A stretch of DNA of 59,282 bases, counting the filler, from Parachlamydiales bacterium (lineage in GTDB: Bacteria > Chlamydiota > Chlamydiia > Chlamydiales > Parachlamydiaceae): assembly GCA_020051075.1 (NCBI GenBank). It is 5 parts of 5 records of this genome, joined end to end, with 100 filler letters (N's around TTAATTAATTAA, not from the genome) between each part and the next. Parts side by side here need not be neighbours in the genome. Positions count along the whole stretch, not along the records: positions 6,170 to 23,270 come from JAGVJP010000066.1; 4 more parts are not named here. The stretch is one strand, 5' to 3'. The notes beneath the pieces were generated by a model. That model did no database searches, was not told the origin of the DNA, and worked only from the letters and a program-made list of their open reading frames with translations. A program made the position numbers and the translations under genes. Shown here in pieces: positions 6,858 through 13,218 of the stretch. The first letter of the stretch is position 1, and the number at the start of each line of letters is the position of its first letter.

Positions 6858-8888
6858 CTATCGTCTTAGTACTTCTCCAATAGCGCTTAACATGTATCCA
6901 CTTGCTTTTACTCCTCCACGCAATAATAAGGGAGCAAATGGAGCTAAATAAGAAAGTAATTTAGAAGTTTCTTCGCTGTTTAATATCATATCTGCTTTAT
7001 TCGCAGCCTTTAAAACCATTCCGAGGTACCCTTCAGAAAAATGGGAAAACAACTCTCTTCCTAAAGTGCTGGAAGATAAAATGGATATCGCTTTTCTGCT
7101 AAGTGCAGCATTATCTTTCTCTGAATCAACACGAAAACACTGCCATCCAGGCTGAGCGAACGATAAAATGAAATGAGGATTAACTCCTGCACTCAACATA
7201 TTATATTGAATCTGGTAAACGTCACCTATCAGTTGATACCCTAACCGTGAAACGAGATCTCCTCTAACCAGATATTGCTTTACACAAGGCTTAAGGCTAG
7301 AGCCATTCCAAAGCCTAGCTGTTTCCTCATCGCTTCCAGCAGCATTTAAAGTGATTGAAGGGAATCTCGAGTCATCATGAATCCTTGTTGGAAAGGCTGC
7401 GGCAGTCATTGCTACAAGCGCTGCTCCTTGACTATACCCAAAAAGTTGAATTTTTTTACCTGTTTCATTATTTAGTCGCGTCAGCCATTGGCTAATCTTT
7501 GGTTTAGATTTATCAAAAAACGTTCTTGCCACTCCTGCTGGGTCAATATTGTTATACATGGAAACCACAGCACCTGTTGTCTTCATCTCTGTTGAAGTCC
7601 CTCTAAAGATAAGGATAGGAGGATATTGGCTCCCTATTGGAGGAACCAATCCAGTGGCAAAAATTCCATCAGCTAAAACAACTTTTTCAATTTGATATGA
7701 AATGCGCTCACTTCCTTGTGGAAGGATTATGATGCGATCTTTTGCTGGTAATTTGCTATAGTCCTGAAATCCAACGATCTTAGACAATACTTCTGCGATG
7801 AATAGCTGTTGCAGCTCGGTATTGATAACAATGTTTTCAATGGTATTGATGAGTGTTTGAGCATAGCATAATTCATCTATTGGTTTTTTTCTCATGGTAA
7901 CATCTGGGGGACGTTTTAAATCCAAAAACAATTTCTGGAATGCTTTATGAGAATCAAATGAGAGTTTAGGGAGTTCTTCGCTTTTTTCAGCAGAGAATAC
8001 TAACTGCGGCAATCGGTAGACCAACCAAGCTAAAACATTATTAGCAGTGATATCTCGATTGCCTTTTTCAGATGATTCTTGAAATGCTTCCCCTGCTTTT
8101 TCCAATAACCCTTGTTCTAGATACGCACAAGCAATTCCTGCAAGAGCTTCAGATTTCGAGAAGGCAGGATTGCGAACATCTGCTAAAGCAGCATTGTAAG
8201 CAGTAATGGCCTTCTCTGGTTTACTTTGCAAAAGAAAAAGATGTCCTTTTTTAAGCTTTGCCTCTGGGATGGTCTGAGATATTTCATCGAAGGCTTCTAA
8301 TGCTTTTTCCCATTCTCCAGAGACGTAATAGGCGATCGCTTTATAATACTTTTTCTCCGCTTCATCTTCAGCTAAAATCACTCTATTTGACCCAACATCA
8401 TTTTGAGAAAGACCTTCAGACAGACGTTTGGAAAATCCCAATAACAATAATTCATCATCAGCAAATCCAGAGCAAAAGACTTCGCGAGTGATATCTTCTA
8501 TATTCGACTGCGGTTTGCCTTCTGCAGAAGGTTGGTGAATCTCTGGACGAGCAAATTTAGGGAAAAACAACGTCCCTTCAGCCCCAGGAAATCGCCCAAT
8601 TTCATGACGCATGCACAAGGTCCTTGCCCTTAAACGAAGAATATCTGGATCGCTTCTATGAGCCTTTGGAATCTTTATGATCTTTGTAAGGGTTTCATCA
8701 TAGTCCTTATGATTAAAATCACGTTTGGCCTGCTCAAAGAGTCCTTGAACATCTAAAGGTAATTCTCTCACAGCCTCGCTCAAAGATTTCGTCGTAGAAT
8801 TTAAATGGCGAATTGAAGCCCGAGAAGCCGTTTGAAATAGTTGTGGTTGAGTCGCCAACCATCGTAATTGATAAAGAGCCTGCATCAT
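6858..8888 (-). CDS. TPR plus class-3 lipase-like alpha/beta hydrolase, with presequence-like N-terminus
   Basis: TPR helices, LIFRGT, nucleophile elbow GYSQG and GDLVSRLG. A GGAGG RBS precedes the ATGs at 8888/8885. Confidence 0.8.
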   Translation of the reverse strand: MMQALYQLRWLATQPQLFQTASRASIRHLNSTTKSLSEAVRELPLDVQGLFEQAKRDFNHKDYDETLTKIIKIPKAHRSDPDILRLRARTLCMRHEIGRFPGAEGTLFFPKFARPEIHQPSAEGKPQSNIEDITREVFCSGFADDELLLLGFSKRLSEGLSQNDVGSNRVILAEDEAEKKYYKAIAYYVSGEWEKALEAFDEISQTIPEAKLKKGHLFLLQSKPEKAITAYNAALADVRNPAFSKSEALAGIACAYLEQGLLEKAGEAFQESSEKGNRDITANNVLAWLVYRLPQLVFSAEKSEELPKLSFDSHKAFQKLFLDLKRPPDVTMRKKPIDELCYAQTLINTIENIVINTELQQLFIAEVLSKIVGFQDYSKLPAKDRIIILPQGSERISYQIEKVVLADGIFATGLVPPIGSQYPPILIFRGTSTEMKTTGAVVSMYNNIDPAGVARTFFDKSKPKISQWLTRLNNETGKKIQLFGYSQGAALVAMTAAAFPTRIHDDSRFPSITLNAAGSDEETARLWNGSSLKPCVKQYLVRGDLVSRLGYQLIGDVYQIQYNMLSAGVNPHFILSFAQPGWQCFRVDSEKDNAALSRKAISILSSSTLGRELFSHFSEGYLGMVLKAANKADMILNSEETSKLLSYLAPFAPLLLRGGVKASGYMLSAIGEVLRR

Positions 8889-9202
8889 CGCCTCCAAGTG
8901 AATTTTATGGCTGATCTTAAAAAATTCTACGAAATAAATCATTATAAAAATGAATTTACGCAGAATTTTTTATTAATGATTTACCCTAAGAGTTTTCGGA
9001 TTCACCAACTCCGGTTCATCATTGAAATAATGGGTGCTTGCTCTTGAAATGATCGAGATTCTAAGTCACTGAAATTGTATCTTTGCCATTTCTTTAACCA
9101 TCTTGAAACCAATTCCAAGAAAAAATTGTTGCAAATATTCTGAAAATATAAGATTGTCCAGCCAGAAATTTAACCAATCAAAATACAAGAAAGAAGGAGA
9201 CG

Positions 9203-12800: not shown

Positions 12801-13218
12801 TATAATTTTCGGCAAAATGATCAATGACAATCCAGCAATTAAGTCTCTACGATTATATGGATGCGATCTTAACGATGAAGGAGTGCAATCAATTGCTACA
12901 AGCTTAGAAACGAATGAGTGGATTGAAGAACTGCAACTCGAATGGAATAGTCTTCTCACACCTGTTGGTGTCAATGCGCTAACTGATCGTCTAAAGAAAA
13001 ATAAAACTCTAAAGAAGTTATCGTTAGCGGAATGTTCGCAGGTCACTTCGGCTTCTATTATTAACCTAATAGAAAAGGCCCCTCCACAACTCAAAACCAT
13101 AGAGGTAAGTGAATATTGGAATATTACAGACAAGAAAAAGACAATACTGGAAAAAGCCAAGAAAAAAAATATTACAATCATCTTTCATCCTCTTTCGTGG
13201 AGTCGCTATCTATGGTAA
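9802..13218 (+). CDS. NB-ARC (STAND) ATPase with two TPR-LRR modules, NLR-like; probably the frameshifted continuation of 9203
   Basis: FVGRE, Walker A GPGGIGKS, Walker B LLIIDNVD, GFPLAI, TPRs (AFNNIG, AYNNRG) and RNI-like LRRs. Frame is open from 9802. Confidence 0.88.
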   Translation, partial: KKKEIEKKINFFRTPNHIFVGREKEIENIHERFSSTPDDSANQRPKTKICVLRGPGGIGKSQIAFFFEYTHAHEYQRIIFIDCENTDSFINSVKEVIREYQLEIPTDNNACYSLMQSLLTAEKRYLLIIDNVDTEELFDLMRKIYPTHSSGDVLITARYASAAMSAHTIPVKGLDLSNGIRLFKEVLNKQYHPAFDRHSDQEKKEFIEEDLDGFPLAIRIAAMNFNTHNAAQKPASYQTIKQYRGHLRKLEIGTKFFYADFLPNSDELDYTRTILAAYIPNIKQIAEKFGAQKEKYESLLKDFLHFFAFFGTMQNIPFSIEEIRKLFRQLTLYSDIPDVGFDTVIALLEKHSLIERKFISEHQLFISIPQTVKWAAQYHFLQEVEDRFQNRSEHAYDQGRYFWFQKSAEYFNDLVNEDNILDEIQMTIFFSFLEFLQQTQCPEQIKIEFINNSKIFNTMTDGILQDTQQIRNIMNTLPSELIDQFLDGLEKSIKSTKDSNKKTKIGQSLINLGTLYSESNPGKAKRFFETAIDAGNESGMFSLGMLYLNVFDNKKDTSDMGNILNQLGCKDRNELLNQAIKYFTKQIDSNKSDKATAFNNIGVCFNRLNDREGAKSNYREAIRINPYNPLFHSNLSTNLDDPSDKEKHKRIAEGLKKALPALNKIPDKYKKAILDFLSSESNFKLNIPEEKGLINTEFGCIFGDILNSNSTITTLDLSEYPFDNDGMRHLAKSLATNQTIKELRIQWSESLSYTTIKEFYFNLKENKSITQLSLSNSERLSSEAILELFENAPPQLKIIELKDFENTPEGKKHKENLSQSLINLGKNYKESDPIIAKRCFKTAISFGHSTGYFELDLLYGLLSQKEKKPEKQKKLVSKALECCDKQIAINPCAEAYNNRGYRFEQLQQPRQAMFNYNKAKEIDPYEYLYYNNLSRIHSTLNNQIESQRYKRIAEGLRKAPQNFKALPKGYKEMILDFLSRETSFELKESSAKHTMDQDHGIIFGKMINDNPAIKSLRLYGCDLNDEGVQSIATSLETNEWIEELQLEWNSLLTPVGVNALTDRLKKNKTLKKLSLAECSQVTSASIINLIEKAPPQLKTIEVSEYWNITDKKKTILEKAKKKNITIIFHPLSWSRYLW

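Follow-up and report, generated by a model that had tools for sequence, protein, structure and literature searches.

The window, by which we mean the whole analysed stretch of 59,282 nucleotides, consists of five contigs joined by N spacers, and the gene pair described here sits on one of them, C119. The initial annotation had placed a lipase gene and an NB-ARC gene head-to-head about 315 bp apart, and by our measure the lipase ATG at 8885 and the start of ORF-A at 9203 are separated by 317 bp. Shine-Dalgarno (SD) motifs precede both starts (GGAGG at 8891-8895 on the minus strand for the lipase, AAGGAG at 9194-9199 for ORF-A), so the N-termini quoted in that annotation are likely the real ones. 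A promoter scan of 8886..9202 found no sigma-70 consensus promoter. The features of the locus are:

6858..8885, minus strand: TPR-lipase gene, encoding 675 aa when read from the ATG with SD support, within an ORF that extends open to 8942
8793..8885, minus strand: presequence-like lipase leader, residues 1-31, ending in RHLNST; R-x-[FLY]-x-[STH] motifs of homologues align here
8016..8378, minus strand: TPR repeats of the lipase, about residues 170-290 (Pfam TPR matches; AlphaFold model)
7086..7733, minus strand: predicted alpha/beta-hydrolase domain with a fungal-lipase (Lipase_3-like) fold (alignment, Foldseek)
7431-7433, 7257-7259 and 7173-7175, minus strand: codons of the lipase triad, S485 (in GYSQG), D543 and H571, in invariant columns
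8886..9202, no strand: divergent intergenic region, 317 bp, with the SD motifs of both genes
9203..9817, plus strand: ORF-A, 204 aa, predicted short product with leader (1-109), one transmembrane (TM) helix and tail
9389..9421, plus strand: RHFSQ (63) and RGFST (69) of ORF-A, putative MPP-like motifs
9530..9586, plus strand: predicted TM helix, ORF-A residues 110-128, no proline
9662..9781, plus strand: 14-aa repeat (Q-x-T-x-SGDII) present three times in the tail of ORF-A, without conservation in relatives
9801..9810, plus strand: A10 run, proposed slippage site, within the only overlap of the ORF-A and NB-ARC frames
9802..13218, plus strand: ORF-B, NB-ARC, helical linker and two TPR-LRR modules, in the -1 frame relative to ORF-A
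11305..13119, plus strand: tandem duplication of the TPR + RI-like LRR module, 37% identity over 308 aa (Pfam TPR, LRR_6)

The GYSQG motif reported for the lipase is present, and S485, D543 and H571 are invariant in 8/8 aligned sequences. Foldseek matched the fold to a feruloyl esterase (E 3e-4, TM 0.55 by target) and also to the R. miehei lipase. A Pfam search gave no lipase match for the window protein itself; its homologue P0041 matches Lipase_3. Judged from sequence and model, the protein has the marks of a fungal-type lipase, namely GxSxG, the Ser-Asp-His order and a matching predicted fold. It has no TM helix, and its residues 1-110 retrieved TPR clusters only from the ESM Atlas. The N-terminus had been described as free of acidic residues for about 36 aa, and indeed the first one is at position 37.

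What had been called one NB-ARC gene is two ORFs: the leader and the single TM helix are present as claimed, but they lie in ORF-A, separate from the NB-ARC domain. The ORF-A leader has 3 acidic residues among its first 40, the TM helix is rich in Gly/Ala and, with a Kyte-Doolittle value of 0.98, the weakest among 9 TMs compared, and the polar tail terminates in EKKKR. An amyloid-motif reading of the tail repeats was rejected, since the repeats are unconserved and the partner motif is absent. The ESM Atlas look-alikes of ORF-A (SDH7, ESSS and Deltameth_res, at 0.75-0.77) fall below the 0.9 mark and are a lead only; all three named look-alikes are eukaryotic small-protein families, two of them named mitochondrial.

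ORF-B matches the NB-ARC family PF00931 with 35.6 bits (cut-off 23.5). Its Walker A motif lies at about 9961-9984, and GPGGIGKS and LLIIDN are conserved. The domain, the Walker A/B motifs and the C-terminal repeats identify the predicted product as an NB-ARC STAND NTPase, that is, an NLR-like protein. Where the winged helix ends, the likely position of the MHD-type His holds Pro in clade I. A single-sequence AlphaFold model of ORF-B reached a pLDDT of 45 and was left unused. Other NB-ARC proteins of this genome (G000) carry CaaX-like C-terminal motifs, another eukaryotic address.

Lipase and NLR as neighbours across genomes

That the two genes would be linked in relatives was borne out by synteny: the TPR-lipase adjoins a leader-TM-NLR gene in 3/4 genomes with DNA context. 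The neighbours are divergent in G000, tandem in G015 and convergent in G115, and the NB-ARC partners in these genomes come from two separate clades. A further, decayed pair lies on contig C77 of G000; its NLR gene is of a third leader-TM type and begins in overlap with the lipase stop. The TPR-lipase is rare, being found at full length in 3/400 genomes of the order, and of the five copies whose DNA context is available, four touch a leader-TM-NLR. Conversely, G250, G119 and G210 have leader-TM-NLRs and no TPR-lipase, whereas in G480/G506 (57% complete) the lipase is present and a leader-TM-NLR was not found. Several genomes, among them G250, G226 and G124, encode all-in-one proteins of leader, TM, ankyrin, patatin, NB-ARC and TPR. 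The divergent layout is confined to this locus; given the tandem and convergent pairs, a shared divergent promoter is not the conserved feature.

The same data bear on the reading that both proteins are addressed to mitochondria but act as independent effectors, their adjacency arising from mobile effector genes clustering in plastic regions. It would account for the three orientations, for the different NB-ARC lineages next to the lipase and for the leader-TM-NB-ARC genes without a patatin domain, 7/11 of which (those with DNA context) have no adjoining TPR-lipase; in G218, such a gene comes after an unrelated leader-TM gene. The predicted placement of lipase and NB-ARC in different compartments points the same way. 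However, chance clustering fits poorly with a lipase so rare that nevertheless touches a leader-TM-NLR in four of those five copies, with the stop/start overlap of the C77 pair, and with a patatin family in which a phospholipase is fused to NB-ARC behind the same leader. We regard independence as rather unlikely.

Presequence-like leaders in both families

Both N-termini had been called presequence-like. This stood well for the lipase, which ranks in the top 2.5% of 2184 proteins, and weakly for ORF-A, in the top 26%; ORF-A does carry the motifs, and its relatives display the feature more clearly. Comparison with same-family controls showed such leaders to be conserved in both families, by composition rather than by sequence. 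Scored by simple residue counts rather than by a trained predictor, and among kin that are not independent, the number of Arg less that of Asp/Glu across residues 1-40 had a median of +2 for 12 TPR-lipases against -2 for 109 other lipase homologues, and of +3.5 for 8 NLRs of clades I/II against -2 for 15 further NB-ARC proteins. By a rule set post hoc, R-x-[FLY]-x-[STH] stands just ahead of the folded domain in 8/12 TPR-lipases vs 4/109 other lipases; only 4/9 NLR leaders conform to it. On these counts, leaders rich in Arg and poor in acidic residues are characteristic of the clade in both families; they also precede some of the all-in-one patatin-NB-ARC proteins.

In the leader-TM proteins, acidic residues are fewer on the N-terminal than on the C-terminal side of the TM helix in 9/9 cases, and the helix lacks proline in 8/9. 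The suggestion that presequence and TM helix together sort the NLR to the inner membrane is thus in keeping with the charge pattern, which fits predicted stop-transfer. The pattern resembles that of eukaryotic stop-transfer inner-membrane proteins, where a presequence and a proline-free TM are followed by a charged cluster (PMC11452304); unlike these, the window genes are bacterial and import is a prediction. A loose leader-plus-TM rule passes 154/2049 G000 proteins, or 23/2049 when an earlier hydrophobic stretch is disallowed. G000 encodes type III export gates and also TatC; export as Tat substrates was rejected because neither window leader has RR ahead of an h-region and the lipases have none.

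Type III signals are likewise N-terminal, Ser/Thr-rich and poorly conserved, which favours the alternative that each leader is no more than a type III signal or a disordered basic extension, with the TM helix anchoring the NLR in the inclusion or another host membrane and mitochondria never entered. The weak ORF-A score and the many G000 proteins that pass the loose rule speak for it as well. So does the record of prediction in C. trachomatis, where only 5/22 tested proteins with a predicted MTS reached mitochondria (10.1101/2022.08.30.505961). Against it, other chlamydial lipase and NB-ARC homologues, presumably secreted too, show no Arg excess, the R-x-[FLY]-x-[STH] motif is concentrated in the TPR-lipases, the TM is single and Gly/Ala-rich, unlike the bilobed Inc type, and few proteins pass the stricter leader-plus-TM rule. 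This alternative is improbable. From their sequences, we consider it very likely that the window proteins are host-directed, and reasonably likely that mitochondria are their destination.

The frame break at the A10 run

ORF-A ends at 9817. The NB-ARC frame, shifted by -1, is open from 9802 onwards, and A10 lies within the 16-nt overlap of the two. The break just ahead of NB-ARC recurs in 8/67 chlamydial NB-ARC genes, and in 8/8 of these the shift is -1 with a 9-10 nt A or T run in the overlap. G000, G015 and G115 share an identical frame relation at A9-A10, as do two paralogues in G210; a third paralogue of that genome keeps a single frame across A10 at the matching spot, and three patatin genes are split at T9 directly ahead of NB-ARC. 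Leader, TM and NB-ARC share one frame in P0005, G250 and G119, which indicates that leader-TM-NB-ARC is one natural protein. Separate translation of ORF-B was rejected: its first GTG, at 9859, has no SD motif, and relatives have no Met ahead of Walker A. That all eight splits fall at A/T runs and all are -1 points to slippage yielding short and long products. With a run of at least nine A or T at the frame overlap, kept across genomes, the gene has the sequence features of slippage-recoded genes of the tssM/dnaX type. We therefore propose that the interrupted receptor gene probably has two products, a short one that serves as membrane anchor and a long one that signals, and it is highly likely that the NB-ARC frame is read through by slippage.

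We rejected homopolymer error in the assembly as the main cause. In G000, A10 is the sole split-like run among runs of at least 9 nt, with no 9-nt run behaving so, and of ten runs of at least 10 nt A10 alone falls in coding DNA; moreover, other genomes carry the identical split. DNA reads from four runs (shares 0.05-0.07) gave scattered 151-nt pieces at the locus, none spanning the junction. A conserved 3' stimulatory hairpin was not found, the folds differing among three loci. A tie between the split and the lipase, apparent at first (3/3 vs 0/3), was dropped since the two split G210 paralogues lie in a lipase-free genome.

The run could instead be a DNA-level phase-variation switch or a decay hotspot, leaving this copy OFF or a pseudogene with ORF-A as its sole product. 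In agreement with this, G210 has both unbroken and split paralogues at one and the same run, a second G000 locus is clearly decayed, and slippage is known to rescue chance indels in endosymbionts (PMC5009743); a deletion bias would likewise give one direction. Yet the downstream frames are long and open (1138 codons in ORF-B, 660 in G015, 709 in G115), the splits are alike in direction and position in unrelated NB-ARC lineages and at A or T runs, and bacterial transcription slips at runs of at least 9. We consider a silenced or decaying gene quite improbable.

Proposed mechanism and precedents

Taken together, the sequences make the two proteins probable host-mitochondrial effectors with a slippage-dosed NLR. 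As secreted effectors of an intracellular chlamydia, they would exploit the host's mitochondrial import route by leaders that would act as cleavable presequences and probably also as type III signals. The TM-free lipase would reach the matrix side of the inner membrane and hydrolyse or remodel lipid there, while the TM helix of ORF-A would arrest in the inner membrane, N-in and C-out. Polymerase slippage on A10, to which a ribosomal -1 shift at A_AAA_AAG may add, would yield a minority long form whose NB-ARC-(TPR-LRR)x2 part would enter the intermembrane space; most of the product would be the short anchor. The long form may be a ligand-gated switch, held at low dose by slippage: TPR/LRR would bind a host mitochondrial protein, NB-ARC would oligomerise, the anchors would cluster, and lipid attack on the inner membrane would be gated. 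Its likeliest purpose would be control of host mitochondrial integrity and of the timing of host death.

For the full scheme, two mitochondria-directed effectors with a slippage-dosed NLR acting as a gated lipid-attack switch, we see the case for and against as evenly balanced. That lipase and NLR work in one pathway is plausible yet unproven, and we lean slightly against it: the predicted topology parts the lipase (matrix) from NB-ARC (intermembrane space), which counts against coupling. Direct binding of the two is doubtful. Earlier proposals that the NLR is the sensor for the lipase, that phospholipid is the substrate and that the pair serves immunity found no support here. It is a speculative and somewhat unlikely extension that environmental chlamydiae repeatedly built, within host mitochondria, an inner-membrane NLR switch wired to a lipase, as a TPR-lipase neighbour or a fused patatin, with slippage at a homopolymer ahead of NB-ARC setting how much product lacks the switch and how much bears it; if true, the repeated device would be an NLR pathway that a symbiont encodes and that resides in a host organelle, where it would control mitochondrial integrity.

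Each component has a precedent taken singly: presequence-bearing bacterial effectors, NLR-lipase pairs and two-length slippage products. In the open-access literature we found no report of their combination. C. trachomatis CT529, CT618 and CT642 have Arg/Leu/Ser/Ala-rich leaders for type III secretion and mitochondrial import; in the available part of that report they are Inc-like or hypothetical proteins, not described as lipase or NB-ARC and with no frameshift (10.1101/2022.08.30.505961). Presequences likewise drive import of Anaplasma Ats-1 (PMC2824752) and EPEC EspF into host mitochondria, but these appear in the available accounts as single soluble effectors, with neither a leader-plus-TM anchor bearing an NLR module nor a partner enzyme. 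A poly-A run gives a short and a long membrane-anchored protein from tssM of Citrobacter and Yersinia, and the gene is split by default in one species and run-keeping but continuous in another, as in G115 and the paralogues of G210; TssM, however, is a secretion-machine subunit whose slippage was measured, whereas the shift in the window is inferred and would toggle a whole NB-ARC-repeat module (PMC4256274). In SesB/Het-eN, SBP/PNT1 and BASS, as far as the available sections describe them, an NLR also adjoins a lipase-fold gene, and all-in-one versions occur in the group (PMC5485727; 10.1101/2020.01.06.895854). By inspection, the lipase C-terminus and NLR N-terminus of the window share no common motif, the hallmark of amyloid pairs; in contrast to such pairs, an organelle-type leader heads each partner, a TM helix is present in the NLR, and the pair is symbiont-encoded and probably host-acting.

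A role in phage defence within the bacterial cell, as an Avs-like STAND system whose effector is a TM protein and to which the lipase is accessory, is very remote. Bacterial defence does commonly employ STAND NTPases whose effectors are of the TM or hydrolase kind (10.1101/2022.07.19.500537; 10.1101/2020.01.06.895854), but PADLOC matches 0/3 window proteins, and such a role would leave unexplained the RI-like LRRs, the CaaX-like ends of paralogues and the presence on a soluble lipase of a leader that looks cleavable.

If the preferred reading of mitochondria-directed effectors is true, NLR-like proteins of intracellular bacteria would work inside host mitochondria, beyond their roles as anti-phage tools or as a source of eukaryotic genes, and would offer a concrete handle on chlamydial control of host cell death and lipid supply. 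For annotation, gene callers halve such genes, and the targeting leader is lost.

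A lipase gene beside a split NB-ARC gene

The initial annotation had described a head-to-head lipase/NB-ARC pair, both proteins with mitochondrial-presequence-like N-termini, and had read it as a sensor/phospholipase module delivered to host mitochondria. The genes, on contig C119 of the Parachlamydiales genome G000, are divergent and separated by 317 bp, with the NLR on the plus strand, but the supposed NB-ARC gene consists of two reading frames split at a run of ten A. The observation is partly confirmed with this important correction, and the reading as a whole is partly supported. 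The window consists of five contigs with N spacers between them. According to database figures, the assembly comprises 2.94 Mb in 133 contigs (43% GC, 99.9% complete, 5.7% contaminated); it contains two FHIPEP export-gate genes, which together with close homologues among Chlamydiae fit its reading as an environmental chlamydia.

Features of the locus
Start ATG 8885, minus strand: TPR-lipase, 675 aa, GGAGG ahead of the ATG
9203-9817, plus strand: ORF-A, 204 aa, good SD, leader and one TM, C-terminus EKKKR
Open from 9802 to 13218, plus strand, -1 frame: ORF-B, NB-ARC above the Pfam cut-off, duplicated TPR-LRR module
9801-9810, plus strand: A10 run, inside the 16-nt overlap of ORF-A and ORF-B

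The Arg-rich leader of the lipase is followed by TPR repeats and an alpha/beta hydrolase domain, whose triad S485 (GYSQG), D543 and H571 is invariant in 8/8 aligned homologues. Its AlphaFold model (mean pLDDT 66) matched a fungal feruloyl esterase, the R. miehei lipase and TPR structures, with weak E-values. Where the contig begins (6170-6750), short ORF fragments of high AT content give the impression of remnants of a toxin/immunity-type module.

Comparison of sequences indicates that the ORF-A/ORF-B split is not noise. Among the ten A/T runs of at least 10 nt in G000, this A10 is the sole one in called coding DNA, and no split-like 9-nt A/T runs were found in this genome. The layout of leader-TM ORF, A10 or A9, and NB-ARC in the -1 frame is matched in G015, from another genus, and in G115, from another family; loci L023 and L027, identical in sequence to G015, were left out of the counts. 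Of 67 different chlamydial NB-ARC genes, sampled as best hits rather than exhaustively, 57 lie in one frame, 2 are truncated at the 5' end and 8 are split. In every split gene the overlap contains an A or T run of 9-10 nt and the frame relation is -1; in three of the eight the split point is a T9 between patatin domain and NB-ARC. Leader, TM and NB-ARC form a single protein in P0005, G250 and G119, and of three G210 paralogues one is continuous across A10 and two are split (A10, A9). The A-run split may instead be phase variation or tolerated decay. As for recoding, the accessible text of PMC5009743 describes slippage of bacterial RNA polymerase on 9-nt A or T runs and names A_AAA_AAG as a strong -1 site for ribosomes. 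Since this heptamer ends three of the five A-run splits and not the other two, transcriptional slippage would be the common denominator. The closest precedent for the proposed poly-A recoding is tssM: as excerpted from PMC4256274, the gene is split in Citrobacter, in Yersinia it is uninterrupted and still has the run, and two lengths are made in both.

Linkage of the lipase and NLR genes

The lipase domain is widespread (87/400 genomes of the order), and full-length TPR-lipase matches occurred only in G000, G015 and G115 among these 400, with two candidates scored per genome; searching the family in 73 and in 129 genomes added the G480 copy. Pfam barely detects this chlamydial family, and in P0037 and P0038 the domain is fused to very large repeat proteins. 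The TPR-lipase adjoins the split NLR divergently in G000, in tandem in G015 and convergently in G115, at differing chromosomal sites. In the NB-ARC tree, from which one row lacking a Walker A match was omitted, these NLRs fall into two separate clades: G000 and G015 group with G119, G250 and P0005 (support 93/70), and G115 groups with G210 and G275 (100/99).

A leader-TM-NLR adjoins four of the five TPR-lipase copies with DNA context. Next to the fifth (G480/G506, 57% complete) lies an F-box-WD40 gene, and no leader-TM-NLR was found in G480/G506 at this completeness. The pairing recurs in related Chlamydiae, adjacent in G015 and G115. Linkage is weaker from NLR to lipase than from lipase to NLR: of 11 leader-TM-NLR genes with DNA context and no patatin domain, 7 stand without a TPR-lipase. 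These counts omit nine further TPR-lipases and P0005, which are proteins lacking DNA context. No TPR-lipase was found in G250, whose contig ends just past the NLR gene, nor in G119, G210, G001 or G218. In G218, a 542-aa gene (L169 1711-3339) lies 10 bp upstream of a leader-TM-NB-ARC gene; it likewise encodes an Arg-rich leader and a TM, and it has no Pfam match.

Second pair in G000
C77 19706-21784 (L001 5707-7785) and start of C80: decayed pair, lipase copy plus a third type of leader-TM-NLR

The C77 lipase copy has lost its middle, and its stop codon overlaps the start codon of a gene for a leader, TM and helical domain, which ends soon past a Walker-A-like motif; an intact relative, with leader and TM, is present in G001 (L115 7045-10779).

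Chlamydial ankyrin-patatin-NB-ARC-TPR proteins are encoded at L166 4353-6971 (-), L163 98-2629, L164, L158, L157, L119, L168 and L154. Several members have a presequence-like leader, with the TM present or absent, and others lack a leader; those with leader and TM (G250, G226, G124) lend independent support to phospholipase/NB-ARC pairing behind such leaders. Four patatin-type NB-ARC proteins of G000 (C47 1156-15467, C53 12524-16015) end in CMIL, CFIL, CTIV and CAIL, which we take to be CaaX-like motifs and a hint that prenylation by the host might provide another address.

Leaders as candidate presequences

Leaders were assessed by residue counts with same-family controls rather than by a trained predictor. 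In a FastTree phylogeny of 81 lipase-domain homologues, the TPR-lipases fall on a single branch (support 89), which also contains one fragment. When Asp/Glu were subtracted from Arg within residues 1-40, the median was +2 for 12 TPR-lipases versus -2 for 109 further lipase homologues that start with Met and span 300-800 aa (drawn from 150 listed homologues). The corresponding medians were +3.5 for 8 NLRs from the two clades that bear leaders and -2 for 15 other NB-ARC proteins whose N-termini are complete, the G119 and G210 leaders being counted from an inner Met chosen by the analyst. The p values of about 1e-6 (lipases) and 7e-4 (NLRs) are overstated by kinship. The motif R-x-[FLY]-x-[STH] ahead of the second acidic residue, a rule fixed post hoc once data had been seen, occurred in 8/12 TPR-lipases, 4/109 other lipases and 60/2184 G000 proteins, and in only 4/9 NLR leaders. 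In all nine NLR leaders acidic residues are scarcer N-terminal to the TM than after it, and in eight the TM lacks proline, a pattern described for stop-transfer proteins (PMC11452304, excerpted text). A loose leader+TM rule flagged 18/64 complete NB-ARC genes (by eye, three look false and three were missed) and 154/2049 G000 proteins, 23 of them without an earlier hydrophobic stretch. Ranked within the G000 proteome by the residue counts, the window lipase leader makes a strong presequence case (top 2.5%). The case for ORF-A is weak: its leader ranks in the top 26%, and the hydrophobicity of its TM is 0.98. In C. trachomatis, 5/22 tested candidates reached mitochondria and three of the five were type III secreted (10.1101/2022.08.30.505961, in the portion available). 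Clade II NLRs (L093 7617-8213, L094, L116, L139) have two Cys, 9-10 residues apart, directly after the TM; speculatively, these could suit an intermembrane-space disulfide.

Proposed mechanism and known systems

In the likeliest scheme, the lipase and NLR protein would be exported to the host cytosol and imported via TOM/TIM23. Lacking a TM, the lipase would arrive on the matrix side of the inner membrane; ORF-A would be arrested in that membrane, its tail projecting into the intermembrane space. Through slippage at A10, a minority of chains would gain NB-ARC-(TPR-LRR)x2. These longer chains could act as a switch kept at low dose: by sensing a protein of the host mitochondrion and oligomerising, they could gate the attack on lipids, and so control mitochondrial integrity and host death. 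We infer each step, from export, import and topology to slippage and switch. The predicted placement on opposite sides (lipase in the matrix, NB-ARC in the intermembrane space) argues against a simple model in which the NLR binds the lipase; any coupling would need to pass through the membrane or the anchor.

The presequence-bearing effectors CT529/CT618/CT642 and Ats-1 work in the mode proposed for the lipase and ORF-A. Fungal and bacterial NLR-hydrolase pairs, as far as the accessible text of PMC5485727 and 10.1101/2020.01.06.895854 goes, have a similar gene logic, but their shared amyloid motif is absent here. The lipase/NLR pair matched no PADLOC model. NLR-related proteins have been noted in intracellular bacteria (10.1101/2022.07.19.500537, PMC5062602); the available parts of these two sources mention neither mitochondrial targeting nor slippage. 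The combination of leader, NLR-lipase and slippage did not turn up in searches of a library of open-access papers. We consider it possible but doubtful that the symbiont encodes an NLR-lipase pathway operating within host mitochondria.

On a contig different from that of the pair, 551-2287 and 2637-4508 encode two orphan paralogues that contain coiled coils as well as polyproline tracts and look like host-directed effectors; a third paralogue lies on C114. Tandem large secretin-domain genes (914 and 1201 aa) occupy 42221-48585, the 1201-aa gene having a near copy on C57.
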